From Candidatus Latescibacterota bacterium (lineage in GTDB: Bacteria > Latescibacterota > UBA2968 > UBA8231), in assembly GCA_965204725.1 (NCBI GenBank), contig OZ242005.1, positions 4,864,001 to 4,928,000 on the forward strand: a stretch of DNA of 64,000 nt, in the 5' to 3' direction. The notes under the pieces were generated by a model, which was not told the DNA's origin, ran no database searches, and was given only the letters and a program-made list of their open reading frames with translations. Numbering within the stretch: position 1 is the first letter of the stretch; every line of letters begins with the position of its first letter. Below are positions 12,645 through 28,723 of the stretch, piece after piece. The position numbers and the translations under genes were made by a program.

Positions 12645-13349
12645 ATGTACGTTGTAACTCTCTTGCGTCGTCCGGTGGTGTGGACGGTGGTGGCCAGCGT
12701 CGCGGTCGTGGTCTTTTTGGCCTTGCGTCCCTCTTCGTCGGCCCTCTCGCCGGTGGTGTGGACCGAGCCCTCGGCTAATCCGCTGGCCGAGGTGCTGCGG
12801 CCGGGGGATACCGCGCCGGACTTCGCGCTGCCGGCGGTACAGGGCGGCACGGTCGCCTTGAGTGCGTTGCGGGGAAAGCCCGCTTTGCTGGCCTTTGTTA
12901 CGGCGGAGTGTCCGTATTGTCAGAAGCTATACAAGCAACTCGAAGCCTTTGAACTGAATGCGGACCAACAACTCGTATTCATCTGCCCAAGCGAGGAGGG
13001 TGCTCGGAAAATCAGCGAGACCTATTCCTTTACGTATCCGGTGTTGATCGACTCGGCTGGGGCGATTTCACAGGCGTACAAAACCCCTGGGGTGCCTGCG
13101 GTGTATCGGGTCGGCCCCGAGGGGAAGATTGTGGATTTGGCGGTGGGATGGCCGACGGCTTGGACGTTTGTTCGGGGTTTTGGCCGCCTCCAGCTTAGCG
13201 AAGGCTCTGAAGGTTATTCGTTTAATGGCTCAATCATCATGCTGGCCCAGAAAGGAGGTGCATCCCGTGCTCGTAGGTTTGATGCTCGTCAGCAACCACA
13301 ACGGTTTGCTGATCCTTTTTCCAATTACTCAAGGAGAATTGCGTTATGA
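12645..13349 (+). CDS. Membrane-anchored thioredoxin-fold protein (TlpA/ResA-like)
   Basis: GDTAPDFALP, LSALRGKPALLAF, CPYC, YPVLID, GVPAVY; the last ~45 aa look like read-through of intergenic DNA and the stop overlaps the next ATG. Confidence 0.82.
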   Translation: MYVVTLLRRPVVWTVVASVAVVVFLALRPSSSALSPVVWTEPSANPLAEVLRPGDTAPDFALPAVQGGTVALSALRGKPALLAFVTAECPYCQKLYKQLEAFELNADQQLVFICPSEEGARKISETYSFTYPVLIDSAGAISQAYKTPGVPAVYRVGPEGKIVDLAVGWPTAWTFVRGFGRLQLSEGSEGYSFNGSIIMLAQKGGASRARRFDARQQPQRFADPFSNYSRRIAL

Positions 13350-13687
13350 AATCTCTACTTTTGTTCTTGCAGGCGGTGCTGGTGCTGCCGCTGGTGGCTC
13401 CGCTGGTGGAGTTCGCCACGTCAACCAGCGGGCACGTTGAGCCGCGTGAGGGGTTGGCGCTGGGCTGGCTGGGCAGCGTGGTGGCGGGGCTGGCGGTGGT
13501 GTTCGGCACGGCCGACCAGACCCAGGCCGATTCCTGCTACGGAATCTCGGAGGGAAGCAAGGGATCGTACACAACGTCGGATCCATGCGAGTGGAGGGAC
13601 CATAAACCCTTCAGGTATTGGGTGAATTATTATCGCCACTACGAAGGGGGACCGGGCTGTGTCTATCTGTATTCTGTATGCGTATAG
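13346..13687 (+). CDS. Cys-rich peptide precursor A1 (leader plus 4-Cys core)
   Basis: AAGGAG RBS; leader ..SGHVEPREGLALGWLGSVVAGLAVVFGTADQTQA; core C-x16-C-x23-C-x6-C; five paralogs in the window. Confidence 0.85.
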   Translation: MKSLLLFLQAVLVLPLVAPLVEFATSTSGHVEPREGLALGWLGSVVAGLAVVFGTADQTQADSCYGISEGSKGSYTTSDPCEWRDHKPFRYWVNYYRHYEGGPGCVYLYSVCV

Positions 13688-13798
13688 CCCGGTCGCCCAG
13701 TAGCCCCGTCGCTACGGCTCCCGGCTGTATCTATCAGCGTTTTGCATGCGGTCAGGTGAGCTCCTGTGACGTTATACGGTAGTTGCCAAGACGACGCG

Positions 13799-13833
13799 CC
13801 CCTGTGGTACTTTCGGGCCAAGTACCACAGGGG
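13799..13833 (+). promoter_or_regulatory. Perfect 14-bp stem-loop between peptide and FG-GAP genes (copy 1)
   Basis: CCCCTGTGGTACTT-TCGGGCC-AAGTACCACAGGGG; no U-tract. Confidence 0.7.
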
Positions 13834-13895
13834 TAGGCGTCCTTATGTCGCTCAGAACATCCTAAAACAAATCTATCACGCTTTGGAGGTTCGTT

Positions 13896-16034
13896 ATGCG
13901 CGGTTTGCTCGTTGCGATTGGATTGGTGGTGGCTCCATTTAAGGTCTTGGCTTTAACATGGGATTTTGACGCGGGCACGACTTGGGGATGGGCAGCCCAA
14001 GAGAGCGCCTTCGGCTCAGACCATGGTACGACCACGGTGTACAGCGAAGTCGCAGATGGCGTCTGGCGCATTGCGCCGGTGCCGCACGGGAAAAGACCAG
14101 CCATTCGCTTGCTCTCGCCGCTGATTGGGGAAGACTCTGACCTGTTCGACTGGGTCACCCTACGGCTACGCATCATCCACGATCTCCCCACCGAGGGGGT
14201 CCTTGAAATGTCGTGGTCCAATGTCGAGTACAGACGCCGCAAGAAGGAAGAACCCAGCGTAGGGTTGGGATTTTTTGTAAGCCGTCCTCAAGTTTATTCC
14301 ACCGAATGGGAAGACATCACCATAGATATACGGGCTTTGGAAGCGGCTCCAGCAGGAGAGATCGATTGGGAGGTCACTTGGGAGGACACTCTCTTCCACT
14401 TCTTCTTAGACCTAGACTTATTGCATCTACACGACATACAAGAATCCAGCTTAAGCCCGGCGGCTCGTCCGACCTTTGTCGAAGTCGATTGGATTCAACT
14501 GACGGGTGCTGAAGAGTTGCTGCTGGGGGAGTTGCAGCCTCGGGCGAGCATCGTGGAGGCCGGGTTGCCTGGGACGTTGTTTGCGGAACCGCGTTTTTCG
14601 GTGTTGGGTCGAAATATCGGTAACCCAGGATCGCATGGTACTTTGGGCGATGTGGATGGCGATGGGGATGCCGATCTGGTCGTGAAATGGGAGGAAATAA
14701 TGGCGAGCGATGGCTGGTCCATAGCGACCAGCGATGGCTTGGGGAGCTTGGTCCCTACCCAAGAGGTCCTCCTCCCACAGGAGGCTTATTCGATTCCGAT
14801 GATTACGGGAGGCGATTTCGACGGGGATGGGCTTCTCGATCTGGCCTTTAGTACCGGTCGAACTATCGAATTGTGGCTCAACCGGGGCGAGGATGGATTT
14901 GAAACCATCCTACAGCTATCCGATAGCTATTTCATCGGTCTAGCCGATGGCGACGGCGATGGCGATGTGGACCTGTTGGCGGTAGAAGACCGCGACGACC
15001 TATGGTCTAACTTGACTATGTGGATCAACGATGGCGCGGGCGGGTTTGCCCACAGCGATCGGTTCGTCCTCGACACCGAAGAAGAGCTCGGTCGTTTCCT
15101 GCTGGCAGGGCAACCGGAGGGCGAGGCCGTGCGTGTGCTGTGGATCCGACCCTGCTGGAAGCCGCAGGGGCCGTGGCGGCTGACCCAGCCATGGGCGGCA
15201 AACGAGGAGCCACCGCTGTTTTTTGAGCTTGGGGAGGTCAACCCCTGCGACATGGACCTGCTGGCCGATCTGGATGGGGATGGAGCGGTAGAGTTAGTCG
15301 GAACGCCCGAGCGGAACCTGTTCCCGGGCTTTTCTCGGGGCAACACCCATCACGGTTTAGCCCTGTGGCGCGTGAACCCTTCGGGCGGAGTGGAACGCCA
15401 CACCCTGCTCGGTCCGCAGGTGATCGTGCCGTATTCGTGGCCTAAAAGTGGGGTCATTGCCAGCGACCTGACCGGCGATGGCCTTTTGGACTTGGCCGTA
15501 ATCAATACCAACTTAGCGATGAATCCGGCCCTGATTGTCTTGGTTGGCCAGCGCGATGGCCTGCCCGTCGTCGAAGGGCACTACCCCCTGCCCACCATCG
15601 GCCGCAGCCTGCTCGCAGGCGACGTCAACGGCGATGGGGCGACCGATCTGGTCGTGCTGGGGCGGAGTCAGCGCGGCGACGGCGGAGCCTTCGTCTTCCT
15701 CAACCAAGGCGTTCCCGCCACTGCCATCGCCGCCGAGACGACGACCATGCCTACGACCTTTGCCCTCGGTGCCAACTATCCCAACCCGTTCAACCCGGCC
15801 ACGACCATTCCCGTGTCGGTGGCGGTGGGTGCGGGCGAGGTCGATTTAACCATCTATAACGTCTTGGGGCAGCCGGTGCGCCGCGTGTGGGCGGGTTCGT
15901 TGGCGGCGGGCGAACACCGGCTGGCTTGGGATGGCCGGGACACGCAGGGGCAACCCGTTGCCGCTGGAGTCTATTTGTATCGGTTGCAGGTGGGCGACCA
16001 GACGCGCATTCGCAAGATGGTCAAAATTGAGTAG
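13896..16034 (+). CDS. Secreted FG-GAP/VCBS repeat protein F1 with N-terminal jelly-roll-like domain and C-terminal FlgD/T9SS-type tail
   Basis: Signal peptide; repeated GDxDGDGxxDL motifs; NYPNPFNPATTI..WDGRD..GVYLYRL..RKMVKIE. Confidence 0.88.
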   Translation: MRGLLVAIGLVVAPFKVLALTWDFDAGTTWGWAAQESAFGSDHGTTTVYSEVADGVWRIAPVPHGKRPAIRLLSPLIGEDSDLFDWVTLRLRIIHDLPTEGVLEMSWSNVEYRRRKKEEPSVGLGFFVSRPQVYSTEWEDITIDIRALEAAPAGEIDWEVTWEDTLFHFFLDLDLLHLHDIQESSLSPAARPTFVEVDWIQLTGAEELLLGELQPRASIVEAGLPGTLFAEPRFSVLGRNIGNPGSHGTLGDVDGDGDADLVVKWEEIMASDGWSIATSDGLGSLVPTQEVLLPQEAYSIPMITGGDFDGDGLLDLAFSTGRTIELWLNRGEDGFETILQLSDSYFIGLADGDGDGDVDLLAVEDRDDLWSNLTMWINDGAGGFAHSDRFVLDTEEELGRFLLAGQPEGEAVRVLWIRPCWKPQGPWRLTQPWAANEEPPLFFELGEVNPCDMDLLADLDGDGAVELVGTPERNLFPGFSRGNTHHGLALWRVNPSGGVERHTLLGPQVIVPYSWPKSGVIASDLTGDGLLDLAVINTNLAMNPALIVLVGQRDGLPVVEGHYPLPTIGRSLLAGDVNGDGATDLVVLGRSQRGDGGAFVFLNQGVPATAIAAETTTMPTTFALGANYPNPFNPATTIPVSVAVGAGEVDLTIYNVLGQPVRRVWAGSLAAGEHRLAWDGRDTQGQPVAAGVYLYRLQVGDQTRIRKMVKIE

Positions 16035-16177
16035 GGTGAAGGCTCTTGAGCCATGGACTCAATCGCGGCTACGGGCCAGAAAGGAGGTTCTATCTCGTGC
16101 ATGTAGGTTTGCTGGTCATTCGGCAACCAAGACGGTTTGCTGATTCTTTCTTCTACCCTTTTGAGGAGGATTGAGTT

Positions 16178-16510
16178 ATGAAGTCTTTGCCTTTGTTCTT
16201 GCAGTCGGTGCTGATGCTGCCGCTGGTGGAGTTCGCCACGTCAACCAGCGGGCACGTCGAGCCGCGTGAGGGTTTGGCGCTGGGCTGGCTGGGCAGCGTG
16301 GTGGCGGGGCTGGCGGTGGTGTTCAGCACGGCCGACCAGACCCAGGCCGATTCCTGCTACGGAATCGCGGAGGAAAGCATTGGATATAACCAAACGGGTC
16401 TCCCATGTGCCTGGAAAGACGATGAACCCTCCAAGTATTGGAGGGATTATTATTATCACCATTCTGGGAAGCCGGGCTGTGTCTATCTGTATTCTGCATG
16501 CAGCGTATAG
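16178..16510 (+). CDS. Cys-rich peptide precursor A2
   Basis: GAGGAGG RBS; same leader as A1; divergent core with identical Cys spacing. Confidence 0.85.
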   Translation: MKSLPLFLQSVLMLPLVEFATSTSGHVEPREGLALGWLGSVVAGLAVVFSTADQTQADSCYGIAEESIGYNQTGLPCAWKDDEPSKYWRDYYYHHSGKPGCVYLYSACSV

Positions 16511-16721: not shown

Positions 16722-18851
16722 ATGCGCGGTTTGCTCGTTGCGATTGGATTGGTAGTGGCTCCCCTTAAGGTCTTGGCTTTAACGTGGGATTTTGACGCGG
16801 GCACGACTTGGGGATGGGCAGCCCAAGAGAGTGCCTTCGGCTCAGACCATGGTACGACCACGGTGTACAGCGAAGTCGCAGATGGCGTCTGGCGCATTGC
16901 GCCGGTGCCGCACGGGAAAAGACCAGCCATTCGCTTGCTCTCGCCGTTGATTGGGGAAGACTCTGACCTGTTCGACTGGGTCACCCTACGGCTACGCATC
17001 ATCCACGATCTCCCCACCGAGGGGGTCCTTGAAATGTCGTGGACCAATGTCGAGTACAGACGCCGCAAGAAGGAAGACCCCAGCGTAGGGTTGGGATTTT
17101 TTGTAAGCCGTCCTCAAGTTTATTCCACCGAATGGGAAGACATCACCATAGATATACGGGCTTTGGAAGCGGCTCCAGCAGGAGAGATCGATTGGGAGGT
17201 CATTTGGCAGGACACCCTCTTCCACTTCTTCTTAGACCTAGACTTATTGCATCTACACGACATACAAGAATCCAGCTTAAGCCCGGCGGCTCGTCCGACC
17301 TTTGTCGAAGTCGATTGGATTCAACTGACGGGTGCTGAAGAGTTGCTGTTGGGGGAGTTGCAGCCTCGGGCGAGCATCGTGGCGGCCGGGTTGCCTGGGA
17401 CGTTGTTTGCGGAACCGCGTTTTTCGGTGTTGGGCCAAAATATCGGTGACCCCACATCGCACGGTGCTTTGGGCGATGTGGATGGCGATGGGGATGCCGA
17501 TCTGGTCGTGAAATGGAAGGCAATGGCGAGCAGTGGCTGGTCCATAGCGACCAGCGATGGCTTGGGGAGCTTGGTCCCCACCCCAGAGGTCCGCCTCCCA
17601 CAGGCGGCTTATCCGGAGATTGCGGGAGGCGATTTCGACGGGGATGGGCTTCTCGATCTGGCCTTTAGTACCGGTCGAACTATCGAATTGTGGCTCAACC
17701 GGGGCGAGGATGGATTTGAAACCATCCTACAGCTATCCGACAGCTATTTCATCGGTCTAGCCGATGGCGACGGCGACGGCGATGTGGACCTGTTGGTGGT
17801 AGAAGACCGCGACGACCTATGGTCTAACATGACTATGTGGGTCAATGACGGCGCGGGCGGGTTTGCCCACAGCGATCGGTTCGTCCTCGACACCGAAGAA
17901 GAGCTCGGTGGTCGCCCGCTGGCAGGGCAACCAGTAGGCGAGGCCGTGCGCGTGTTATGGTACCGACCCTGCTGGAAGCCGCAGGGGCCGTGGCGGCTGA
18001 CCCAGCCATGGGCGGCAAACGAGGAGCCACCGCTGTTTTTTGAGCTTGGGGAGGTCAACCCCTGCGACATGTACCTGCTGGCCGATCTGGATGAGGATGG
18101 ATCGGTTGAGTTGGTCGGAACGCCCGAGCGGAACCTGTACCTAGGCTTTTCTGGCGGCAACACCCATCACGGTTTAGCCCTGTGGCGCGTGGACGCCTCG
18201 GGCAAGGTGGAACGCCACACTCTGCTCGGTCCGCAGGTGATCGTGCCGTATTCGCCGTCTAAGGGTGGGGTCATTGCCAGCGACCTGACCGGCGATGGCC
18301 TTTTGGACTTGGCCGTAATCAATACCAACTTAGCGATGAATCCGGCCCTGATCGTCTTGGTTGGCCAACGCGATGGCCTGCCCGTCGTCGAAGGGCACTA
18401 CCCCCTGCCCACCATCGGCCGCAGCCTGCTCGCAGGCGACGTCAACGGCGATGGGGCGACCGATCTGGTGGTGCTGGGGCGGAGTCAGCGCGGCGACGGC
18501 GGAGCCTTCGTCTTCCTCAACCAAGGCGTTCCCGCCACTGCCATCGCCGCCGAGACGACGACCATGCCTACGACCTTTGCCCTCGGTGCCAACTATCCCA
18601 ACCCGTTCAACCCGGCCACGACCATTCCCGTGTCGGTGGCGGCGGGTGCGGGCGAGGTCGATTTAACCATCTATAACGTCTTGGGGCAGCCGGTGCGCCG
18701 CGTGTGGGCGGGTTCGTTGGCGGCGGGCGAACACCGGCTGGCTTGGGATGGCCGGGACGCACAAGGACAGCCGGTCGCCGCCGGGGTCTATTGGTATCGG
18801 TTGCAGGTGGACGACCAGACGAGCACCCGCAAGATGGTCAAAATCGAATAG
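16722..18851 (+). CDS. Secreted FG-GAP/VCBS repeat protein F2 with FlgD-type tail
   Basis: Close paralog of F1. Confidence 0.88.
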   Translation: MRGLLVAIGLVVAPLKVLALTWDFDAGTTWGWAAQESAFGSDHGTTTVYSEVADGVWRIAPVPHGKRPAIRLLSPLIGEDSDLFDWVTLRLRIIHDLPTEGVLEMSWTNVEYRRRKKEDPSVGLGFFVSRPQVYSTEWEDITIDIRALEAAPAGEIDWEVIWQDTLFHFFLDLDLLHLHDIQESSLSPAARPTFVEVDWIQLTGAEELLLGELQPRASIVAAGLPGTLFAEPRFSVLGQNIGDPTSHGALGDVDGDGDADLVVKWKAMASSGWSIATSDGLGSLVPTPEVRLPQAAYPEIAGGDFDGDGLLDLAFSTGRTIELWLNRGEDGFETILQLSDSYFIGLADGDGDGDVDLLVVEDRDDLWSNMTMWVNDGAGGFAHSDRFVLDTEEELGGRPLAGQPVGEAVRVLWYRPCWKPQGPWRLTQPWAANEEPPLFFELGEVNPCDMYLLADLDEDGSVELVGTPERNLYLGFSGGNTHHGLALWRVDASGKVERHTLLGPQVIVPYSPSKGGVIASDLTGDGLLDLAVINTNLAMNPALIVLVGQRDGLPVVEGHYPLPTIGRSLLAGDVNGDGATDLVVLGRSQRGDGGAFVFLNQGVPATAIAAETTTMPTTFALGANYPNPFNPATTIPVSVAAGAGEVDLTIYNVLGQPVRRVWAGSLAAGEHRLAWDGRDAQGQPVAAGVYWYRLQVDDQTSTRKMVKIE

Positions 18852-18905
18852 GGAGCGGACATGCTGGAGATGTGCGCCAACCCGAGAAGAAAAGGACATA
18901 AGACG

Positions 18906-20243
18906 ATGAGACGACCATGGAAAGTACCGTTGCAAAAAAATAGAAAGCTGCAAAGCTGCCTAGTGTTGTCGCTGGCCTTGCATCTGCTGGTGATCTTCGG
19001 CCTCACGCACCGCGAGCAGGTTGCCCAATTTCCCGTCCTGTCGCCGATCATGGTGGAGTTTACCAAGCACCCGCCGCCGCAGCGCACCCTCACCCGCCGC
19101 CAACGACCCCGGCAGCGGCCGTTGGCGCGGCGACCCGCCCTGCAAGCAGCCCCAGTCGCCGCGGTGCGCCCGGCCCCCACGGCGACACGTCCCCTGCCGA
19201 TGTTCAAGTCGGCGGCACTTAGGCTGCCGACAGCGGCCCTGCCGGATCGGCTGGTACTACCTGTGCCGGACTTCCCCGCTCGGCACATTGGTCCGCAAAT
19301 GCAGGCTGGGGCATTGGAAGGGACGCGGCAAGGGGCCGACGAGATTGACTTGGCCTTGGAACTGATGGATGTGCAGGCCATGGACACCGGCCAGCACCGG
19401 GCGATAGTGGTCGTCGATCCAAAAGACCGGCGTCAACTCAAGGGATTCCTCTATATGTCTGGAATCTACAGCCCCTCCATTGAACAGGCTGACAGTGAAC
19501 ATCACGGATACAGACCAAGTAGTTGGTGGCACCAGATGCCGCGCCGATTGGCGGAACGGCGGATTTTGCAAGGGTTGGCCGATGAGATGACCACCAAGAC
19601 ACAGGTTCAGGTTGAAGTGCGCGACGCGGTCCGACTCGACGATCCGCAGCTTTTGCAAATCCCCTTCGTGCTGTTGACCATCGATACCCTCTTTGAGTTT
19701 ACGGACAGTGAGGCGGCCAACCTCGGGGCGTATTTAACTTCGGGTGGCTTCTTGTCTGTGGATATTGGGAGCTTTTTGCAGGACAATTACAGCGACGACG
19801 AATTGGACATTCCGGCGGCGCGTTCTCTCATTCGCGCCAGCTTTCAAGCGGTGGGTTATCAAGAATGGAAGGATTGGCAGTTCAAGCGCCTAGCGATAAC
19901 GCATCCGATCTATCATTGCTTCTACGATATAAACAGTCTGCCACGTGGGATGCGCGATATGCACTTTCTAAACAGAGAATCTCCACCGCCAACTCCAGAC
20001 TATTTGGAGGGTATCGTAGTAGGTGAGCAGTTAGTGGGGGTGTACTCGATGCGTGGCTACGCCGATTTCTGGGCGGGAATCGCTAGGCAGGAGCTAGACC
20101 ATGCTTTGGAGTATAACTCACCCAGCAACTGGTTTCTGGCCAGTGCCGAGGAGCCGATGGTGTATAACTTGGGCGTGAACTTCTTGGTGTATGCGTTGAC
20201 ACGCGAGGGCTCATTGGCCCAACAATTAGTCGATGCGGGCTGA
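18906..20243 (+). CDS. DUF4159-like protein with N-terminal TM and Pro/Arg-rich linker (copy a)
   Basis: TonB-like anchor SLALHLLVIF; NLGAYLTSGGFL, HPIYHCFYDI, YLEGI and LGVNFLVYALT; start could also be 18861. Confidence 0.72.
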   Translation: MRRPWKVPLQKNRKLQSCLVLSLALHLLVIFGLTHREQVAQFPVLSPIMVEFTKHPPPQRTLTRRQRPRQRPLARRPALQAAPVAAVRPAPTATRPLPMFKSAALRLPTAALPDRLVLPVPDFPARHIGPQMQAGALEGTRQGADEIDLALELMDVQAMDTGQHRAIVVVDPKDRRQLKGFLYMSGIYSPSIEQADSEHHGYRPSSWWHQMPRRLAERRILQGLADEMTTKTQVQVEVRDAVRLDDPQLLQIPFVLLTIDTLFEFTDSEAANLGAYLTSGGFLSVDIGSFLQDNYSDDELDIPAARSLIRASFQAVGYQEWKDWQFKRLAITHPIYHCFYDINSLPRGMRDMHFLNRESPPPTPDYLEGIVVGEQLVGVYSMRGYADFWAGIARQELDHALEYNSPSNWFLASAEEPMVYNLGVNFLVYALTREGSLAQQLVDAG

Positions 20244-20297: not shown

Positions 20298-20978
20298 ATG
20301 ATGCAGTCTTTAATGTTTGTTTTTAAGGCTCTCGCCCCGTCGTCGAGCGGGCACGTAGAGCCACGTCAGGTGCTGAGGTGGCTGAGCAACATGGGGGCGG
20401 GGCTGGCGGTGGTGTTCAGCACGGCCGACCAGACGCCGGCCGATACCTGCTTTGGGATCGCAGAAGGAAGCAGAGGGTATCACACAACGACGATTCCATG
20501 CGACCGGCAAGACCCTAAACTCGCCGAGTACTGGGAGGATCATTATTCCCACGATTCTGAGACGCCGGCCGATAGCTCTCGGCAGGATCATTATTTACAC
20601 CATCGTGGAAATCCGGGATGTGTTTATCTGACTTCTACCTGTGGCCCAAGTACGGCCACGGCCACCGCCATCGAGTCCGAGACGGTGATCACCCCCTCAG
20701 CCTTTGTCCTCGGTGCGAACTACCCCAACCCATTCAATCCGGCCACGACTATCCCCCTTACCGTACCCGCCGGAGCCGAGGAGGTCGATTTAACCATCTA
20801 TAACGTCTTGGGGCAGCCCGTGCGCCGCGTGTGGGCAGGTTCGTTGGCAGCGGGCGAACACCGGCTAGCTTGGGAAGGCCAAGACGCACAGGGCCAACCC
20901 GTTGCCGCTGGAGTCTATTTGTATCGGTTGCAGGTGGGCGACCAGACGCGCATCCGCAAGATGGTCAAAATCGAGTAG
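20298..20978 (+). CDS. Cys-rich peptide precursor A3 fused to FlgD-type tail
   Basis: AAGGAGG RBS; SGHVEPRQ leader; CFGIAEGS..PC..YW..PGCVYLTSTC core; NYPNPFNP tail. Confidence 0.85.
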   Translation: MMQSLMFVFKALAPSSSGHVEPRQVLRWLSNMGAGLAVVFSTADQTPADTCFGIAEGSRGYHTTTIPCDRQDPKLAEYWEDHYSHDSETPADSSRQDHYLHHRGNPGCVYLTSTCGPSTATATAIESETVITPSAFVLGANYPNPFNPATTIPLTVPAGAEEVDLTIYNVLGQPVRRVWAGSLAAGEHRLAWEGQDAQGQPVAAGVYLYRLQVGDQTRIRKMVKIE

Positions 20979-21128: not shown

Positions 21129-22334
21129 ATGGAAATCATTCCGTTAATTCCCGAATGCGACGTAGCGGTACAGCGTATGCGAGTCGAACAAAATCGCGAT
21201 GTACGCACCCAAGCGAAGGCTTGTCTCCTTTTGGGTCGTTATTACAAGGAACAAGGAGAACTCGACAAGGCCGAAGCACTGTACCAAAGAGCCTTTGCGA
21301 AAGCACGGTCGTTGCAGGCGCATGACATAGAAGCCGATGCGTGTAGTGGCTTGGGGCTTATGTATCAGGTCAAGGGTCGGATGGATAAGGCGGTTGAGTA
21401 TCTCAATGCAGCCTTTGCCATCAATAGCCAACGCCGCGATAACGAGCGTTTGGCCGTCAACTATAGCAATAGAGGCTTTATCGCCCAGCTCCAAGGAAAA
21501 ATCGCAGAGGCCCAAGAGTTGCATATCCTCGCTCAGCAACTCCACACAGCGTTGGGGAATAGGGCTTATTGGGCTGAAGAATGCGGCAACTTGGGGCAAT
21601 TGGCACTCCAGCAAAACAAACCGGAGGAGGCTGAGGCTCACTTCCAGCAGGGCTTGAACGTTTGCACAGAACTCGGCGATCTGTCGGGCATTTCCGGCCA
21701 CTATCAGGGCTTGGGGCTAGTCTATCTCGGACAGCAGCGGTTGGCCGAAGCCGAAACCGTCCTTAAAAAAGGCGTTGAGATCGAGGAGCGACTCCAGCGC
21801 GACGAGGGGTTGGCTCATCATTACAGCGTTCTGGGGGCCGTATATAGTCAAGCGGGTCGATTTGATGAGGCGGAAGCAATGTACCGTCAGACGCTGGCTA
21901 TCCAACGAAAATTAGGCCATAAACAGTTTGAGGCTCGCACCTTGGGCGGTTTGGGGCAGGTGCTACGGGAGAAAGGTGCTCTGCAAGAAGCCACGGCGTT
22001 CTTCCAACAGGCTGGGGCACTGTTCGACGCGATTGGAGACAACAAAGGCCAAGCGATGCAAGCAGCTATTTTGGGCGATACTTATATGGACGTTGAAAAC
22101 TTTTATGCGGCTGAGGAGGCGTATCGGCAGGCGTTGCAAGTGTTCACGGAAGTATCGGACTTAGAGGCTGTCGCCGCCATTAAAGTCAGCTTGGGGAGGG
22201 CCTATGCGTCGAATCAGGCCCCTTTTGATGCCTTACTTCAGTGGCGGCAAGCACTGGAACTATACCGCGAACTCCAACGAGACGACAAGGTTGAGTTCGT
22301 AGAACAACTTCTGAGGACGAGCGGCCGAATGTGA
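21129..22334 (+). CDS. Tetratricopeptide repeat protein (cytoplasmic)
   Basis: About 9 repeats of ~40 aa (LG..Y..G..AEA.Y..AL); GGAGG RBS; no signal peptide. Confidence 0.85.
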   Translation: MEIIPLIPECDVAVQRMRVEQNRDVRTQAKACLLLGRYYKEQGELDKAEALYQRAFAKARSLQAHDIEADACSGLGLMYQVKGRMDKAVEYLNAAFAINSQRRDNERLAVNYSNRGFIAQLQGKIAEAQELHILAQQLHTALGNRAYWAEECGNLGQLALQQNKPEEAEAHFQQGLNVCTELGDLSGISGHYQGLGLVYLGQQRLAEAETVLKKGVEIEERLQRDEGLAHHYSVLGAVYSQAGRFDEAEAMYRQTLAIQRKLGHKQFEARTLGGLGQVLREKGALQEATAFFQQAGALFDAIGDNKGQAMQAAILGDTYMDVENFYAAEEAYRQALQVFTEVSDLEAVAAIKVSLGRAYASNQAPFDALLQWRQALELYRELQRDDKVEFVEQLLRTSGRM

Positions 22335-22490: not shown

Positions 22491-23168
22491 ATGCAGTCTT
22501 TAACGTTTGTTTTTAAGGCTCTCGCCCCGTCGTCGAGCGGGCACGTAGAGCCGCGTCAGGGCTTGGTGCTGAGGTGGCTGGGCAGCATGGGGGCGGGGCT
22601 GGCGGTGGTGTTCAGCACGGCCGACCAGACGCCGGCCGATACCTGCTTTGGGATCGCAGAAGGAAGCAGAGGGTATCACACAACGACGATTCCGTGCGAC
22701 CGGCAAGACCCTAAACTCGCCGAGTACTGGCAGGATCATTATTCTCACGATTCTGAGACGCCGGCCGATAGCTCTCGGCAGGACCATTATTTTCATGATC
22801 CTGGAAATCCGGGATGTGTTTATCTGACTTCTACCTGTGGCCCAAGTCCGGCCACCGCTGTCGAGGCCGAGGCGGCGATCTCCCCCTCCACTTTTGTCCT
22901 CGGTGCGAACTACCCCAACCCATTCAATCCGGCCACGACTATCCCCCTTACCGTGCCCGCCGGAGCCGAGGAGGTTGATTTAACTATCTACAATGTCTTG
23001 GGGCAGCCGGTGTACCACGTTTGGAACGGTCCGTTGGCAGCGGGCGAACACCGACTGGCTTGGGAAGGCCAAGACGCACAGGGCCAACCCGTCGCTGCTG
23101 GAGTCTATTTGTATCGGTTGCAGATGGGCGACCAGACGCGCATTCGCAAGATGGTCAAAATCGAATAG
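22491..23168 (+). CDS. Cys-rich peptide precursor A4 fused to FlgD-type tail
   Basis: Near copy of A3 with leader EPRQGLVLRWLGS. Confidence 0.85.
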   Translation: MQSLTFVFKALAPSSSGHVEPRQGLVLRWLGSMGAGLAVVFSTADQTPADTCFGIAEGSRGYHTTTIPCDRQDPKLAEYWQDHYSHDSETPADSSRQDHYFHDPGNPGCVYLTSTCGPSPATAVEAEAAISPSTFVLGANYPNPFNPATTIPLTVPAGAEEVDLTIYNVLGQPVYHVWNGPLAAGEHRLAWEGQDAQGQPVAAGVYLYRLQMGDQTRIRKMVKIE

Positions 23169-23357
23169 ACGCATGAGGCAGGAGGGGACATGATGGAGAA
23201 GTAGGGGATCAGTTGGTAGGCGTGTATTCGAGGTGCGGGTACGCCGATTTTTGGGCGGGAATCGTCAAGCAGGAATGGGAGGCACTTGATGTGGCCCGGG
23301 AAGTCGTCGCTCTAAGAGCCTATGCGAAAATTGCGACCAGAGAAGCGACGGCTAATC

Positions 23358-23425
23358 TGTAAAAAGTTGTGCAAAAGTTGTGCAAAATTTGTTCAGTTGC
23401 ACAAGTTTTGAACAAGTTTTGCACA
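23358..23425. promoter_or_regulatory. Putative enhancer (UAS) array, copy 2
   Basis: Near-identical to 10068-10140. Confidence 0.7.
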
Positions 23426-23556
23426 GAAAATCGCCGATCAACTTGCGACGACGCCTCATGTCAGCCCCGTAGAGAATTTTTTTTCGCTATCCAACACCTT
23501 GTTTTTCAATCCTTTAGGGAATCCTAAAGGATTTTTTTGTCCCGGATCGGCATTGT

Positions 23557-23572
23557 TGGCACGAAAATTGCA
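23557..23572 (+). promoter_or_regulatory. Sigma54 (-24/-12) promoter, copy 2
   Basis: TGGCAC-GAAAA-TTGCA. Confidence 0.9.
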
Positions 23573-23600: not shown

Positions 23601-23768
23601 ATGGAAGCCCTACTCAACGATTGCTTTGGGGGTCATTCGTTTAATGGCTCAATCATCATGCTGGCCCAGAAAGGAGGTGCATCCCGTGCTCGTAGGTTTG
23701 ATGCTCGTCAGCAACCACAACGGTTTGCTGATCCTTTTTCCAATTACTCAAGGAGAATTGCGTTATGA
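23601..23768 (+). pseudogene. 55-aa deletion-fusion ORF: A24 peptidase start joined in frame to the thioredoxin tail
   Basis: MEALLND (as at 10328) + CFGGH + SFNGSIIMLAQKGG..SRRIAL (as at the end of 12645-13349); TGA overlaps the ATG at 23765. Confidence 0.7.
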
Positions 23769-24106
23769 AATCTCTACTTTTGTTCTTGCAGGCGGTGCTG
23801 GTGCTGCCGCTGGTGGCTCCGCTGGTGGAGTTCGCCACGTCAACCAGCGGGCATGTTGAGCCGCGTGAGGGCTTGGCGCTGGGCTGGCTGGGCAGCGTGG
23901 TGGCGGGGCTGGCGGTGGTGTTCGGCACGGCCGACCAGACCCAAGCTGATTCCTGCTACGGAATCTCGGAGGGAAGCAAGGGATCGTACACAACGTCGGA
24001 TCCATGCGAGTGGAGGGACCATAAACCCTTCAGGTATTGGGTGAATTATTATCGCCACTACGAAGGGGGACCGGGCTGTGTCTATCTGTATTCTGTATGC
24101 GTATAG
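23765..24106 (+). CDS. Cys-rich peptide precursor A5 (protein identical to A1)
   Basis: Identical 113-aa translation; four synonymous differences seen by eye. Confidence 0.87.
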   Translation: MKSLLLFLQAVLVLPLVAPLVEFATSTSGHVEPREGLALGWLGSVVAGLAVVFGTADQTQADSCYGISEGSKGSYTTSDPCEWRDHKPFRYWVNYYRHYEGGPGCVYLYSVCV

Positions 24107-24318: not shown

Positions 24319-26454
24319 ATGCGCGGTTTGCTCGTTGCGATTGGATTGGTGGTGGCTCCATTTAAGGTCTTGGCTTTAACATGGGATTTTGACGCGGGCA
24401 CGACTTGGGGATGGGCAGCCCAAGAGAGTGCCTTCGGCTCAGACCATGGTACGACCACGGTGTACAGCGAAGTCGCAGATGGCGTCTGGCGCATTGCGCC
24501 GGTGCCGCACGGGAAAAGACCAGCCATTCGCTTGCTCTCGCCGTTGATTGGGGAAGACTCTGACCTGTTCGACTGGGTCACCCTACGGCTACGCATCATC
24601 CACGATCTCCCCACCGAGGGGGTCCTCGAAATGTCGTGGACCAATGTCGAGTACAGACACCGCAAGAAGGAAGACCCCAGCGTAGGGTTGGGATTTTTTG
24701 TAAGCCGTCCTCAAGTTTATTCCACCGAATGGGAAGACATCACTATAGATATACGGGCTTTGGAAGCGGCTCCAGCAGGAGAGATCGATTGGGAGGTCAT
24801 TTGGCAGGACACCCTCTTCCACTTCTTCTTAGACCTAGACTTATTGCATCTACACGACATACAAGAATCTGTCTTAAGCCCGGCGGCTCGTCCGACCTTT
24901 GTCGAAGTCGATTGGATTCAACTGACGGGTGCTGAAGAGTTGCTGCTGGGGGAGTTGCAGCCTCGGGCGAGCATCGTGGAGGCCGGGTTGCCTGGGACGT
25001 TGTTTGCGGAACCGCGTTTTTCGGTGTTGGGTCAAAATATCGGTAGCCCAGGATCGCAGGGTGCTTTGGGCGATATGGACGGCGATGGAGATGCCGATCT
25101 AGTCGTGACATGGTTCTCAATAGCGGGCAGTAGCTGGGCTATAGCGACTAGCGATGGCTTGGGGGACTTGGCTTCGACCCAAGAGGTCCTCTTCCCACAG
25201 AAGGCGGCTTATTCGGAGATTGCGGGAGGCGATTTCGACGGGGATGGGCTTCTCGATCTGGCCTTTAGTACCGGTCGAACTATCGAATTGTGGCTCAACC
25301 GGGGCGAGGATGGATTTGAAACCATCCTACAGCTAACCGACGTCGGCTGGCTCGTTAGTCTAGCCGATGGCGATGGCGATGGCGATGTGGACCTGTTGGT
25401 GGTAGAAGACCACGACGACCTATGGTCTAACATGACGATGTGGATCAATGACGGCGCGGGCGGGTTTGCCCACAGCGATCGGTTCGTCCTCGATACCGAA
25501 GAAGAGCTCGCTCCTTCCCTGTTGGCAGGACAACCGGTGGGCGAGGCTGCGCGCGTACTGTGGAACCGACCCTGCTGGAAGCCGCAGGGGCCGTGGCGGC
25601 TGACCCAGCCATGGGCGGCAAACGAGGAGCCACCGCTGTTTTTTGAGCTTGGGGAGGTCAACCTCTGCGACATGCACCTGCTGGCCGATCTGGATGGGGA
25701 TGGATCGGTTGAGTTGGTCGGAACGCCCGAGCGGAACCTGTACCTAGGCTTTTCTGGCGGCAACACCCATCACGGTTTAGCCCTGTGGCGCGTGGACGCT
25801 TCGGGCGGGGTGGAACGCCATACCCTGCTCGGTCCGCAGGTGATCGTGCCGTATTCGTGGCCTGCGAGTGGGGGCATTGCCAGCGACCTGACCGGCGATG
25901 GCCTTTTGGACTTGGCCGTGATCAATGCCAACTTAGCGATGAATCCGGCCCTGATCGTCTTGGTTGGCCAGCGCGATGGCCTGCCCGTCGTCGAAGGGCA
26001 CTACCCCCTGCCCACCATCGGCCGCAGCCTGCTCGCAGGCGACGTCAACGGCGATGGGGCGACCGATCTGGTCGTGCTGGGGCGGAGTCAGCGCGGCGAC
26101 GGCGGAGCCTTCGTCTTCCTCAACCAAGGCGTTCCCGCCACTGCCATCGCCGCCGAGACGACGACCGTGCCGACAGCCTTTGTCCTTGGGGCGAATTATC
26201 CCAACCCGTTCAACCCGGCTACAACCATCCCCCTTACTCTACCCGCCGGAGCCGAGGAGGTCGATTTAACCATCTACAACGTCTTAGGGCAGCCGGTGCG
26301 CCGCGTGTGGAACGGTTCGTTGGCGGCCGGCGAACACCGGCTAGCTTGGGATGGCCGGGACGCACAAGGACAGCCGGTCGCCGCTGGAGTCTATTGGTAT
26401 CGGTTGCAGGTGGACGACCAGACGCGCACCCGCAAGATGGTCAAAATCGAATAG
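24319..26454 (+). CDS. Secreted FG-GAP/VCBS repeat protein F3 with FlgD-type tail
   Basis: Close paralog of F1 and F2. Confidence 0.88.
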   Translation: MRGLLVAIGLVVAPFKVLALTWDFDAGTTWGWAAQESAFGSDHGTTTVYSEVADGVWRIAPVPHGKRPAIRLLSPLIGEDSDLFDWVTLRLRIIHDLPTEGVLEMSWTNVEYRHRKKEDPSVGLGFFVSRPQVYSTEWEDITIDIRALEAAPAGEIDWEVIWQDTLFHFFLDLDLLHLHDIQESVLSPAARPTFVEVDWIQLTGAEELLLGELQPRASIVEAGLPGTLFAEPRFSVLGQNIGSPGSQGALGDMDGDGDADLVVTWFSIAGSSWAIATSDGLGDLASTQEVLFPQKAAYSEIAGGDFDGDGLLDLAFSTGRTIELWLNRGEDGFETILQLTDVGWLVSLADGDGDGDVDLLVVEDHDDLWSNMTMWINDGAGGFAHSDRFVLDTEEELAPSLLAGQPVGEAARVLWNRPCWKPQGPWRLTQPWAANEEPPLFFELGEVNLCDMHLLADLDGDGSVELVGTPERNLYLGFSGGNTHHGLALWRVDASGGVERHTLLGPQVIVPYSWPASGGIASDLTGDGLLDLAVINANLAMNPALIVLVGQRDGLPVVEGHYPLPTIGRSLLAGDVNGDGATDLVVLGRSQRGDGGAFVFLNQGVPATAIAAETTTVPTAFVLGANYPNPFNPATTIPLTLPAGAEEVDLTIYNVLGQPVRRVWNGSLAAGEHRLAWDGRDAQGQPVAAGVYWYRLQVDDQTRTRKMVKIE

Positions 26455-26508
26455 GAAGCGGACATGCTGGAGATGTGCGCCAACCCGAAAAGAGAAGGAC
26501 ATAAGACG

Positions 26509-27822
26509 ATGAGACGACCATGGAAAGTACCGTTACAAAAAAATAGAAAGCTGCAAGGCTGCTTGGTGTTGTCGCTGGCCTTGCATCTGCTGGTGATCTT
26601 CGGCATCACGCACCGCGAGCAGGTTGCCCAATTTCCCGTCCTACAGCCGATCATGGTGGAGTTTACCAAACGCCCGCCGCCGCAGCGCACGCTGAACCGT
26701 CGGCAACGACCCCGGCAGCGGCCGTTGGCGCGGCGACCCGCCCTGCAAGCGGCCCCAGTCGCCGCGGTGCGCCCAGCCCCCACGGCGACGCGCCCCCTGC
26801 CGATGTTCAAGTCAGCGGCACTTAGGCTGCCAACGGCGGCCCTGCCGGACCGGCTGGTGCTGCCGGTGCCGGACTTCCCCGCTCGGCACATTGGTCCACA
26901 AATGCAGGCTGGAGCACTCAAAGGGACGAGGCAGGGGGCCGACGAGATTGACTTGGCCTTGGAACTGATGGATGTGCAGGCCATGGACACCGGCCAGCAC
27001 CGGGCGATGGTGGTCGTCGATCCAAAAGACCGGCGTCAACTCAAGGGATTCCTCTATATGTCCAATGTGTATAGCCCTTCCATCGAACGGGCTGAGTCGG
27101 AAACATCGCGCCGACTTTTGCAGACGCGCCAAATGGTAGAAAACCGGATGCTACAAGGGCTGGCCGACAAAATGGTCGCCAGTACGCAGGTTCACGCCGA
27201 AGTGCTCGACGCGGTGGCACTGGACGACCCCCAACTATTGCAGGTGCCCTTCGTCCTCCTGACGGTGAGTGATCATTTCGAGTTCACCGAGGCGGAGACA
27301 GCTAATCTCGGGGCGTATTTGACTTCGGGTGGCTTCCTGTTTGCGGATATTGTGAGCGAATTGCCGCGCGAATACAGCGACGACCAATTGGACATTCCCG
27401 CAGTGCGTTCCCTCATTCGCACCAGTTTGCAGGCGGCCGGGTATCAAGAGTGGAAGGACTGGCAATTTAGACGCCTAGCGATGACCCATCCGATCTATCA
27501 TTGCTTCTACAATGTGGAGAGTCTCCCGCGCGGGATGCGCGATATGCACTATGCCGGCGGAGTGCCGCGGACTCCGGACTATTTGGAGGGCATCGTCGTC
27601 GAGGATCAGTTGGTGGGCGTGTATTCGATGCGTGGCTACGCCGATTTCTGGGCGGGAATCGCCAAGGAGGAAGCGGAGATATTTGATCCGGTCCTTTTTG
27701 TCGGTAGTCCGTTTCGGGCTAGTGCCGAGGAGCCGATGGTGTATAACTTGGGCGTGAACTTCTTGGTATATGCGTTGACACGAGAAGGCTCATTAGCCCA
27801 ACAATTAGTCGCTGCGGACTGA
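26509..27822 (+). CDS. DUF4159-like protein (copy b)
   Basis: Paralog of 18906-20243; start could also be 26464. Confidence 0.72.
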   Translation: MRRPWKVPLQKNRKLQGCLVLSLALHLLVIFGITHREQVAQFPVLQPIMVEFTKRPPPQRTLNRRQRPRQRPLARRPALQAAPVAAVRPAPTATRPLPMFKSAALRLPTAALPDRLVLPVPDFPARHIGPQMQAGALKGTRQGADEIDLALELMDVQAMDTGQHRAMVVVDPKDRRQLKGFLYMSNVYSPSIERAESETSRRLLQTRQMVENRMLQGLADKMVASTQVHAEVLDAVALDDPQLLQVPFVLLTVSDHFEFTEAETANLGAYLTSGGFLFADIVSELPREYSDDQLDIPAVRSLIRTSLQAAGYQEWKDWQFRRLAMTHPIYHCFYNVESLPRGMRDMHYAGGVPRTPDYLEGIVVEDQLVGVYSMRGYADFWAGIAKEEAEIFDPVLFVGSPFRASAEEPMVYNLGVNFLVYALTREGSLAQQLVAAD

Positions 27823-27880
27823 GGGCTATCAGAACAAACTTTGTGGGTCCTTTTTTTATTCTTTTAAGGAGGAATGAATT

Positions 27881-28723
27881 ATGCAGTCTTTAACGTTTGT
27901 TTTTAAGGCCCTCGCCACGTCAGGGCTTGGCCCTCGGTTGGCGGGGCTGGCGGTGATGTTCGGCACCGTCAGCCAGACCCAGGCCGATCCCTGCTTTGGA
28001 ATCGCGGGGGAAAGCCATGGCTCGCACGAAACGACGTATCCATGCGAGTGGCGAGACCATGAACCCGTCGAGTATTGGTGGGAGCATTACTTCCACTATT
28101 CTAGAACGCCGGCCGATAGCTCTGGGCAAACTCCGGGATGTGTTTATCTGTATGCTACCTGTGGCCCAAGTACGACCACCATCGCGGCCGCGACGCCGAC
28201 CGATACTTGCTTTGGAATCGCAGAGGGAAGCAGAGGATCTTACACAACGCCGTATCCATGCGAGTGGCAAGACAATAAACCCGCCGAGTATTGGTGGGAT
28301 CATTATTTCCACTATTCTGAGACGTCGGCCGATAGCTCTGGGCAAACTCTGAGTTGTGCTTATCTGAATTCTACCTGTGGCCCAAGTACGGCTGGCCCAA
28401 GTGCGGCCACCGCCATTGCGGCCGAGACAGCGACCACTCCCTCAATCTTTGTCCTCGGTGCGAACTACCCCAACCCATTCAATCCGGCCACGACTATCCC
28501 CTTGGCGCTGCCCGCCGGAGCCGAGGAGGTTGATTTAACCATTTACAATGTCTTGGGTCAGCCGGTGCGCCGAGTGTGGGCGGGTTCGTTGGCGGCGGGC
28601 GAGCATCGGCTGGCTTGGGATGGCCAAGACGCACAGGGCCAACCCGTCGCTGCTGGAGTCTATTTGTATCGGTTGCAGGTCGGCGACCAGACGCGCATTC
28701 GCAAGATGGTCAAAATCGAATAA
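27881..28723 (+). CDS. Cys-rich peptide precursor A6 with two tandem cores, fused to FlgD-type tail
   Basis: Shortened leader ..LAGLAVMFGTVSQTQA; two CFGIA..PCEW..YWW.HYFHYS..C.YL..TC units; NYPNPFNP tail. Confidence 0.85.
   Translation: MQSLTFVFKALATSGLGPRLAGLAVMFGTVSQTQADPCFGIAGESHGSHETTYPCEWRDHEPVEYWWEHYFHYSRTPADSSGQTPGCVYLYATCGPSTTTIAAATPTDTCFGIAEGSRGSYTTPYPCEWQDNKPAEYWWDHYFHYSETSADSSGQTLSCAYLNSTCGPSTAGPSAATAIAAETATTPSIFVLGANYPNPFNPATTIPLALPAGAEEVDLTIYNVLGQPVRRVWAGSLAAGEHRLAWDGQDAQGQPVAAGVYLYRLQVGDQTRIRKMVKIE

Follow-up and report, generated by a model that had tools for sequence, protein, structure and literature searches.

Several described systems join a conserved leader to a variable, cysteine-rich product. 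In conotoxin- and defensin-type superfamilies, a conserved signal or pro-region precedes a hypervariable mature peptide with a conserved cysteine framework, and many paralogues are encoded. Prochlorosins are precursors of ribosomally synthesized and posttranslationally modified peptides (RiPPs) that have long leaders. Glycocins, which combine disulfides with glycosylation, have a double-glycine leader and a helix-loop-helix core, and their gene clusters include a C39/ABC exporter. The bipartite signal of autotransporters known as the ESPR (extended signal peptide region) places a conserved N-terminal extension, which has a hydrophobic block to itself, ahead of a classical signal peptide. Thioredoxins of the MauD/ResA type serve disulfide-rich periplasmic proteins, for example, the small subunit of methylamine dehydrogenase. 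Here we describe six precursor genes containing seven cysteine-rich cores in a 64-kb stretch, hereafter the window, of contig OZ242005.1 from a Candidatus Latescibacterota bacterium (assembly GCA_965204725.1). The general kind of these gene products, a conserved leader on a hypervariable cysteine framework, is known from animal toxins, pilins, and RiPP precursors. New is the combination of features found here, which has no description in the models, structures, or literature that we searched.

With moderate confidence, we propose that these genes encode exported, disulfide-stabilized, and fast-evolving miniproteins with a binding or antagonistic role, controlled by sigma-54 and served by a dedicated maturation module. 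We document the anatomy of the precursors, their family, the contrast in conservation between leader and core, a fold model, the type IX secretion system (T9SS) sorting domains, the synteny, and the promoters. Comparisons with relatives draw on 18 loci (numbered with the prefix L) from one scan of species-representative genomes, of which 17 carry record titles of Latescibacterota or Latescibacteria and one of Gemmatimonadota. Conservation statistics for leader and core were obtained from 116 aligned family members, and protein clusters were counted at 90% identity. Latescibacterota are referred to in PMC9426513 as well-known members of sponge communities.

Precursor genes, cores, and family

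A sequence-only reading of the window had proposed a new family of peptides with four cysteines and many aromatic and histidine residues, comprising seven cores in six genes. Used as a regular expression, its motif matches all seven cores, located in six plus-strand open reading frames (ORFs) of 110-280 amino acids, and a six-frame scan of the whole window returned no match beyond these. The cores are present, but the coordinates assigned to them are those of gene starts, not of core starts. Precursor A1 (13346..13687, + strand; 113 amino acids) consists of a leader (13346-13528, amino acids 1-61) and a 4-Cys core (13529-13684; amino acids 62-112 according to the motif). Precursor B (16178..16510, +; 110 amino acids) has a leader followed by a 4-Cys core at 16349-16507 (amino acids 58-108), and both are without a sorting domain, as is precursor A2 (23765..24106, +; 113 amino acids, core at amino acids 62-112), which is identical to A1 in protein sequence and 99% identical in DNA. 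Precursor C1 (20298..20978, +; 226 amino acids) combines a shortened leader, a 4-Cys core with a 39-residue loop (20442-20642; amino acids 49-115), a linker, and a T9SS type A sorting domain. Precursor C2 (22491..23168, +; 225 amino acids), with 96% DNA identity to C1, likewise contains a 4-Cys core (22638-22838; amino acids 50-116) and a T9SS sorting domain. Precursor D (27881..28723, +; 280 amino acids) has a 35-amino acid leader without the SGHVEPR block, two 4-Cys cores (27986-28162 and 28202-28378; amino acids 36-94 and 108-166), a linker, and a T9SS sorting domain. Cysteine spacing in the window cores is C-x16-C-x23/31/39-C-x6-C, and a Shine-Dalgarno sequence, AAGGAG(G/A), is present in front of each of the six ORFs, 7-9 nt 5' of the ATG. 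The repeating unit of the region is a peptide gene plus the next gene of about 710 amino acids. As a consequence of recent segmental duplication, apparent from the identical pair and the 96% identical pair, the seven cores, all of which match the motif, represent 4-5 distinct variants.

The first 57-61 residues of the leader are nearly fixed in the 116 members, with the consensus M.SLTFVLE..LLAPLVEFATS.SGHVEPRQGLALGWLGSVVAGLAVVFGTADRAQA. Pairwise identity is 0.83 in the leader versus 0.38 in the core, and column entropy is 0.46 versus 2.16 bits. The greater conservation of leaders over cores, proposed earlier for the window alone, is found there and is stronger among the relatives. With the 113-amino acid protein as the query, we obtained 338 candidates of 62-198 amino acids, of which 175 clusters had E<=0.01; all of these are unnamed or termed "hypothetical." The 226-amino acid form as the query yielded 21 clusters, all with a sorting domain and a 4-Cys core, loops of 23-58 residues, and in some cases two cores. 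The 18 loci contain 22 family ORFs. A genome has several of these, and as many as three can be consecutive. The family is large, unannotated, and found almost only in Latescibacterota records. Its members carry cores with 4, 6, or 8 cysteines, and the aromatic and histidine-rich 4-Cys motif, real as it is, thus defines one subclass of a larger family that is held together by its leader.

No Pfam or NCBIfam model matched the leader or the core of the window proteins, and no profile match above cut-off was found for 36 diverse relatives. Against PDB sequences, the core profile reached a best E of 0.24, with nothing usable, and the best match of the full-length profile (E 0.015) was an unrelated scaffold protein. 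A core-only profile built from the six distinct window cores and searched against 1.84 billion representative proteins returned only the family's own two-core cluster and one 569-amino acid repeat protein; we judged the latter spurious, with profile positions 27-48 matched eight times. In the ESM Atlas, the only match of the 113-amino acid protein was a cluster of 92-amino acid hypothetical proteins labelled Poribacteria, with a score of 0.76, below evidence level. A full-text literature search found no description of this family, and the parts of PMC12993501 and PMC9426513 that list generic RiPP classes do not mention it. No confident match to a characterized domain emerged from the Pfam, NCBIfam, PDB, or Foldseek searches, and the initial impression of an unrecognized family has held.

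Two irregular members were observed. In P0134 (289 amino acids, two-core, T9SS-fused), a leader fragment (…VVAGLAVVFGAVDETPA…) precedes the second core, so that the tandem duplication took in part of the leader. At L006 11396-11764, the leader is intact and the core reads as an unrelated cysteine-free sequence; this is probably a frameshifted pseudogene.

The number of cysteines per core is 4 in 38 members, 6 in 53, 8 in 19, and another count in 6, so that 110 of the 116 cores carry 4, 6, or 8, an even count. The extra cysteines come in pairs. One near residue 76 accompanies the C-terminal C-x-C position (69 with both, 6 with a single one, 41 with neither; phi 0.90), and one near residue 72 accompanies the column near residue 98 (18 with both, 1 with a single one, 97 with neither; phi 0.97). 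An AlphaFold2 model based on 116 sequences has a leader with a predicted local distance difference test score (pLDDT) below 50 and a region of residues 62-113 with pLDDT 83-95, in which there are three long strands, 72-84, 87-98, and 105-112. A core-only run on 26 cores recovered these three strands at a mean pLDDT of 87.7. The core is thus confidently modelled as a three-stranded beta sheet. The hairpin register of this model brings residues 72 and 98 opposite one another, and the co-varying cysteine pair at about these positions therefore lends independent support to the model. In Foldseek searches of the PDB (both models) and of BFVD (core model), no match reached E<=0.001; a PorM fragment came closest in the PDB (E 0.46 and 1.7), with a root mean square deviation above 9 A, and the best BFVD match had an E of 1.1. 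A two-disulfide scaffold with a variable surface had been suggested for the cores. Four invariant cysteines, a fast-varying remainder, and a compact modelled sheet agree with this, and disulfides are plausible in view of the even cysteine counts, the pairing of extra cysteines, and the membrane-anchored thioredoxins encoded upstream.

The composition of the cores (Tyr 8.2%, Trp 4.0%, His 5.1%) and the position of the conserved Y-W…Y-x-H run on a predicted strand raise the question of whether the 4-Cys core could be a disulfide-braced aromatic platform, in the manner of the carbohydrate-binding modules (CBMs) CBM1 and CBM10 or of hevein-like domains, that anchors the cell or FG-GAP proteins to a polysaccharide or matrix. 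Fungal CBM1 is a three-stranded sheet with two disulfides, which the modelled core resembles, and the neighbours of the precursor genes encode surface propeller proteins and glycosyltransferases. We nevertheless consider an adhesive module of this type rather improbable, although it would be compatible with export. None of the families CBM1, CBM10, CBM14, and hevein was detected in the 6 window proteins or, at E<=1, in 36 diverse members, and Foldseek returned no CBM match. Moreover, in a comparison of 26 cores the four cysteines were the only invariant positions, the aromatic positions being unconserved outside the 4-Cys class, and such variation suits changing protein targets better than a fixed polysaccharide.

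The coding sequences, too, indicate different histories for leader and core. Comparison of 22 coding sequences (231 pairs) gave proportions of 0.37 for synonymous and 0.083 for nonsynonymous differences in the leader, and of 0.63 and 0.44, respectively, in the core. For 18 pairs of the same core class, the ratio of nonsynonymous to synonymous divergence (omega) had a median of ~0.16 in the leader and of 0.66 in the core (core range 0.18-2.9, with three pairs above 1), values which come from overlapping pairs of ~50 codons each in a recombining region and which, to the detriment of our proposal, amount to an indication rather than a formal test. A nonsynonymous excess of the core over the leader was observed at p<0.05 in 11 of the 18 pairs. 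Judging from its codons, the leader is under purifying selection. Synonymous divergence (dS) can differ greatly between the two parts of one gene: it was 0.04 in the leader and 1.64 in the core for L002/L009, which belong to one genome, 0.70 and 0.09, respectively, for L011/L013, and 0.73 and 0.27 for L004/L005. Given these different histories, the leader/core junction behaves as a recombination breakpoint.

In its conserved leader, the cysteine framework that is the main constant of the core, the many paralogues, and the raised nonsynonymous change in the mature part, the family is like conotoxin and defensin superfamilies. It differs from them in being bacterial and unrelated in sequence, in its 57-61-amino acid leader with two hydrophobic blocks, in its association with a sigma-54 operon encoding thioredoxins and an A24-type peptidase, and in the occurrence of T9SS fusions. 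It is hardly credible that the ORFs are an unexpressed by-product of a duplicated GC-rich region. There is segmental duplication, and many ORFs overlap on both strands, but the strong ribosome-binding sites, the restriction of indels to in-frame ones, a leader omega well below 1, the invariance of the cysteines across 175 clusters drawn from numerous assemblies, and the confidence of the fold model all argue against such an artefact.

Leader, upstream operon, and promoters

The leader has two hydrophobic blocks, one of them N-terminal (…PLVEF). The 36-amino acid segment before G36 includes a stretch with a hydropathy of 2.43. R34 and G36 do not vary among the 116 sequences. The next ~19 residues are mostly hydrophobic; this segment, LALGWLGSVVAGLAVVFG, has a hydropathy of 1.92, and position +5 after G36 is Trp (G|LALGW). 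By inspection, a T/A-x-A signal-peptidase-like site is situated exactly where conservation stops. In untagged forms (n=117), the elements SGH[VI]EPR, PR.G.A.GW, GWLGSVV, and PL.EF are intact in 112-116 sequences. Among T9SS-tagged forms (n=26), by contrast, SGH[VI]EPR is kept in 10, PR.G.A.GW in 11, GWLGSVV in 9, and PL.EF in none, while the AGLAVVF h-region persists in 21 and the leader still ends in a T-x-A-type site in the printed sequences. The tagged window genes at 20298, 22491, and 27881 show a basic residue, an AGLAV(V/M)F h-region, and a T-x-A site by inspection, with a 19-residue hydropathy window below threshold. Since the h-region and the T-x-A site persist in tagged forms, the distal leader segment probably acts as a conventional Sec signal. 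The additional conserved elements matter only when a T9SS tag is absent, and a dedicated partner for untagged forms is therefore indicated; the co-encoded A24-type peptidase is the obvious candidate. The bipartite signal is reminiscent of the ESPR, from which it differs in lacking sequence similarity (no Pfam match), in its tiny cargo, and in an extension that decays when a T9SS domain is present.

Three other interpretations of the leader were dropped: a lipoprotein signal, there being no lipobox ahead of the first cysteine; a Tat signal, the twin arginine being absent; and a translation start inside the leader, given the strong ribosome-binding site before the first ATG and the in-frame indels.

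The candidate leader peptidase is encoded at 10328..11473 (+), as a 381-amino acid membrane protein of the A24 (prepilin-peptidase-like) aspartyl peptidase family with 8 hydrophobic segments. Its match to PF01478 is marginal (26.9 bits, cut-off 26.5). In the Atlas it scored 0.96, with 228 of 256 features common to Peptidase_A24/Arc_PepC clusters, and it contains the stretches "YTDIHFRHIP" and "APGDAKL," in which we take TDIHFRHIP and PGDAKL to be the A24 catalytic motifs. No sequence relative of this protein was found in the PDB. Next is a 218-amino acid membrane-anchored protein (11437..12093, +; start codon uncertain), with a CSVC motif, one N-terminal transmembrane segment, and a weak flavin mononucleotide (FMN)-binding-like C terminus ("GISGATFSTGG"; PF04205 at E=0.0024 and 18.9 bits, under the cut-off of 22; partial RnfG match), which is syntenic in 13 loci. 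Two thiol-disulfide oxidoreductases follow, both with an N-terminal membrane anchor and partial ResA and MauD matches: thioredoxin 1 (12039..12629, +; CSAC; AhpC-TSA/Redoxin) and thioredoxin 2 (12645..13349, +; CPYC; thioredoxin fold). The ResA/MauD-type matches are far under the equivalog cut-offs (40 versus 188.6 bits). Membrane-anchored CxxC thioredoxins beside a small Cys-rich exported protein with an unusually long leader recall the MauD/ResA setting, with the differences that the matches are partial and that no dehydrogenase genes are present.

The true stop of thioredoxin 2 is uncertain, because the 3' end of its ORF runs into the duplicated region before the peptide gene. The last ~50 codons are repeated at 23601-23768, 5' of the gene at 23765, where no thioredoxin gene exists, and the orthologous ORFs have 185-190 amino acids in L004, L005, L007, and L008 and 238 in L002. 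This tail probably belongs to the upstream region of the peptide gene and not to the protein.

Upstream of the A24-like gene, a sigma-54 enhancer-binding activator is encoded at 6764..9949 (+), with Reg_prop propeller repeats, an AAA+ Sigma54_activat domain, and HTH_8 (Pfam), as well as partial NCBIfam matches of the NifA/NtrC type. No transmembrane-like hydrophobic segment was found in it, and it is thus probably cytoplasmic. The activator gene also lies upstream of the operon in L002, L006, L007, L008, and L014. An exact sigma-54 -24/-12 element (TGGCAC-N5-TTGCA) at 10267, 61 nt 5' of the ATG of the A24-like gene at 10328, is part of a regulatory region (10070..10282, +) comprising TTGCACAAGTTTTGCA-type inverted repeats (10080-10133), a hairpin (10218-10243), and the exact element itself (10267-10282). 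A second copy of this region (23360..23572, +), with activator-site-like repeats, a hairpin, and an exact element at 23557-23572, places the latter (23557) 208 nt 5' of the peptide ATG at 23765. When up to one mismatch is allowed, the window has 7 matches to the sigma-54 element versus 1.88 expected, a number reached in 0 of 100 shuffles. The extra matches are the TTGCACAAGTTTTGCA repeats 130-190 nt upstream, located as putative activator-binding sites would be. In the other loci, an exact element precedes the A24-like gene in five, and L001 and L009 have one ~145 nt 5' of the peptide gene. A scan for sigma-70 promoters gave fewer sites than in shuffled sequence.

The stretch 23360-23610 copies 10070-10340, including the T-run after the hairpin and the first A24-like codons, and is joined directly to the upstream region of the peptide gene, whereby this peptide cassette stands under a sigma-54 promoter on its own. 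This arrangement has the appearance of an operon reduced by deletion to the promoter and the peptide cassette. The short ORF at 23213-23362, which is similar to the C-terminal region of DUF4159 proteins (…VGVYS.RGYADFWAGI…), seems to be left over from the rearrangement that made the third cassette.

The gene order recurs among the relatives (tblastn): sigma-54 activator, A24-like protein, 218-amino acid protein, thioredoxin 1, thioredoxin 2, peptide, and one to several FG-GAP genes encoding a T9SS C-terminal domain (CTD). Thioredoxin 2 is directly 5' of the peptide gene in 13 of the 18 loci. Eight of these 13 also have the A24-like gene, and three of the remaining ones are cut by contig ends. 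Further 3', the recurring order continues with a glycosyltransferase/transglutaminase-like fusion, a GT2 protein, a tetratricopeptide repeat (TPR) protein, a second FG-GAP type, and DUF4159.

The co-encoded peptidase raises the main alternative to our proposal, namely that the leader is an unusual class III signal. The A24 peptidase would then cut after Gly36 (R-x-G|LALGW…) on the cytoplasmic face and leave a "mini-pilin" of ~77 amino acids, with a conserved hydrophobic helix and a hypervariable disulfide-stapled beta head, for assembly into a filament or for display at the membrane. As in type IV pilins, a hydrophobic tract of ~19 residues comes after an invariant Gly, a conserved N terminus is joined to a variable cysteine-stapled beta head, these two parts are mosaic, and an A24 peptidase is co-encoded, here as the first gene of the operon. 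Pilin genes are known to be under sigma-54 control, and sigma-54 promoters directly precede peptide genes here. The leader was found on no other cargo: a search of proteins of 199-2000 amino acids gave 12 matches, all of them T9SS-fused members of the same family, which is weak evidence. In class III signals, the conserved Gly at -1 has about 21 mainly hydrophobic residues behind it, with which the segment LALGWLGSVVAGLAVVFG agrees. Type IV pilins are described in PMC4471445 as having a conserved N terminus and a variable, disulfide-bearing beta-meander head. The definition given there has 6-26 mostly hydrophilic residues before the Gly, however, whereas the corresponding segment of the family is 36 amino acids long and partly hydrophobic. 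In addition, Glu5 is absent, and no assembly ATPase, platform protein, or secretin is encoded by the 29 window ORFs or by 24 unmatched flanking ORFs of 8 loci. Three window genes and 21 further clusters fuse the core to a T9SS domain, requiring a soluble periplasmic intermediate, and conservation ends exactly at the T/A-x-A site after the tract, as it would for signal peptidase I. We consider a pilin-like product unlikely.

Type IX secretion and FG-GAP neighbours

The T9SS type A sorting domain of the precursors at 20298, 22491, and 27881 scored 37.7, 37.5, and 36.8 bits, respectively, against TIGR04183 (cut-off 23), and PF13860 matched the same three proteins with 43-53 bits (cut-off 27). The sequence-only reading had described the products as a peptide family. 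Small variable cores they are, but the putative Sec-type signal in the leaders and the T9SS domain on three of six precursors indicate that the products are exported proteins encoded in a sigma-54 operon and not free-standing peptides. As in T9SS type A cargo, a TIGR04183/PF18962/PF13860 domain is present, above the NCBIfam cut-off, on 3 of 6 precursors and on all neighbouring FG-GAP proteins. The family differs from such cargo in a passenger consisting of only one or two miniprotein domains of ~60 amino acids and in the absence of the sorting domain from half of the window copies.

Each of the three untagged window precursors is followed by an FG-GAP gene that carries a T9SS sorting domain. 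These encode beta-propeller copy 1 (13896..16034, +; 712 amino acids, with a signal peptide-like N terminus and a T9SS type A sorting domain), copy 2 (16722..18851, +; 709 amino acids), and copy 3 (24319..26454, +; 711 amino acids). The middle of copy 3 differs from that of copy 1 (61% DNA identity over 300 nt) despite the identity of the preceding peptides. The three T9SS-tagged window precursors are not followed by an FG-GAP gene. Among all 23 untagged copies (3 in the window and 20 in the loci), an FG-GAP/CTD gene is located within ~215 nt in 17 and at a distance of 0.85-1.5 kb in three, once with a transposase-like ORF between, and two copies are on a contig too short to tell. In their sorting-domain DNA, the tagged peptide genes are 81-85% identical to the first FG-GAP gene, suggesting that the fused forms arose by recombination with an FG-GAP gene.

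Two observations concern the arrays themselves. One genome (L002 10438-20338, L001 1-6065, L009 1-19050) has tandem arrays in which four to five consecutive FG-GAP/T9SS-CTD genes follow one peptide gene, so that FG-GAP genes outnumber peptide genes there. Genes for DDE transposases lie inside or beside peptide/FG-GAP arrays at L003 10955-11803 (- strand) and L006 14147-15286 (- strand).

Two glycosyltransferase genes are syntenic with the peptide genes. A GT-B (macrolide-GT-like) glycosyltransferase/transglutaminase-like fusion (28733..31231, +; 832 amino acids, 17 Cys, without a signal peptide-like N terminus) occurs within the flanks of 9 of the 18 loci, and a GT2-family glycosyltransferase (31233..32309, +; 358 amino acids) follows it. 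It could be argued that these and other cytoplasmic enzymes recognize the leader and modify the core, which would make the family a glycocin-like RiPP system. NHLP and Nif11 are named as RiPP precursor types in PMC9426513. Like these and the prochlorosins, the family has a highly conserved leader at least as long as the core, a hypervariable core, and several unlinked copies per genome, which is the precursor pattern, and two genes for thiol-disulfide oxidoreductases accompany the two for glycosyltransferases. We regard this possibility as very unlikely. Scans with Pfam and NCBIfam found no known RiPP tailoring enzyme, RiPP recognition element (RRE) domain, or C39/ABC exporter in the cluster. 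The TPR protein (21129..22334, +; 401 amino acids) matches HaaT with 85.9 bits versus a cut-off of 1125. In addition, the leader is hydrophobic and Sec-like, as expected for export, a core of 50-70 amino acids is modelled with high confidence without any modification, and T9SS fusion means export as a folded protein. The all-beta AlphaFold2 core also sets the family apart from glycocins.

Our preferred account, that of exported miniproteins with dedicated maturation, can be outlined as follows. The two-part leader would comprise an N-terminal hydrophobic block with the invariant SGHVEPR-x-G, followed by a Sec-type region LALGWLGSVVAGLAVVFG and the T/A-x-A signal-peptidase-like site, where cleavage would release a core of ~50-70 amino acids. 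Folding would take place outside the cytoplasm and give the core three long antiparallel strands and a surface rich in aromatic residues and His. Two disulfides are expected in the 4-Cys class of the window and three or four in the sister classes, and the upstream membrane-anchored thioredoxins, together with the weakly FMN-binding-like CxxC protein, probably introduce them. T9SS-tagged copies would reach the cell surface or the medium by type IX secretion. Untagged copies, which have the full leader and an FG-GAP neighbour with a sorting domain, probably need the A24-type peptidase for maturation and may likewise be extracellular. Fast evolution of the core and its shuffling relative to the leader would be as expected for a variable surface facing a changing partner, possibly a host, competitor, or phage.

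A number of points weigh against this account, besides the caution attached to omega. The Sec and signal peptidase assignment rests on hydropathy and inspection. At 57-61 amino acids, with more than 90% conservation at 34 positions, the leader exceeds the needs of Sec export, and this excess is explained only through the presumed partner. No gene of the T9SS machinery is present within the 64-kb window. In L008, the untagged peptide gene is followed by a glycosyltransferase gene and not by an FG-GAP gene. Core identity is weakly correlated with the identity of the adjacent FG-GAP protein (Spearman 0.26; reached in 20 of 2000 permutations), and the corresponding value for the leader is 0.30, so that co-variation of core and FG-GAP protein, being no stronger than that of leader and FG-GAP protein, does not show specific co-evolution. 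In a diverged paralogous module at L013 14-5980, with an A24-like protein of 41% and thioredoxins of 37-39% identity, the next genes encode DUF4159 and a distant FG-GAP protein and a peptide gene is absent, and the A24-like/thioredoxin/thioredoxin module may therefore serve FG-GAP proteins instead. Finally, the loci are from fairly close relatives (neighbours 60-94% identical), which makes conserved gene order weak evidence for coupling.

A more far-reaching version, which we put forward tentatively and think doubtful as a whole, is that this bacterial system makes a combinatorial library of disulfide-rich miniproteins. A 60-amino acid leader of extreme conservation would send hypervariable 4-, 6-, or 8-Cys cores to a dedicated, sigma-54-switched maturation line that combines an A24-type intramembrane peptidase of the non-pilin kind with a flavin-linked relay of thioredoxins. 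Cores would be swapped by recombination at the leader/core junction, and the products would surface alone or riding FG-GAP propellers via type IX secretion. With its new fold, this would be a prokaryotic counterpart of venom-peptide evolution.

If our account holds true, an uncultured phylum carries a large and very diverse family of small disulfide-rich proteins, with at least 175 clusters and a predicted fold without a solved relative. The leader may then be a portable maturation tag, and the scaffolds could be useful as starting points for binders and antimicrobials. Two subjects become testable with this system: non-pilin substrates of bacterial A24 peptidases and the exit route of untagged small proteins from type IX-secreting cells. 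Diversifying selection and cassette exchange in bacteria could be studied cleanly in this natural example, given how strongly leader and core differ and how mosaic their histories are.

Other genes in the window

Two copies of a DUF4159 protein are encoded in the peptide region, the first at 18861..20243 (+; 460 amino acids, with an N-terminal membrane anchor) and the second at 26464..27822 (+; 452 amino acids). An Rfam scan of the window gave 0 matches. Two paralogous proteins of ~400 amino acids at 3297-4508 and 4535-5716 (42-46% identical via the loci) are without a Pfam or NCBIfam match, and they are conserved 5' of the activator gene in L006 and L007. Another large surface protein is encoded at 54083-58498 (- strand); it has 1471 amino acids, He_PIG Ig-like repeats, and the same T9SS sorting domain.

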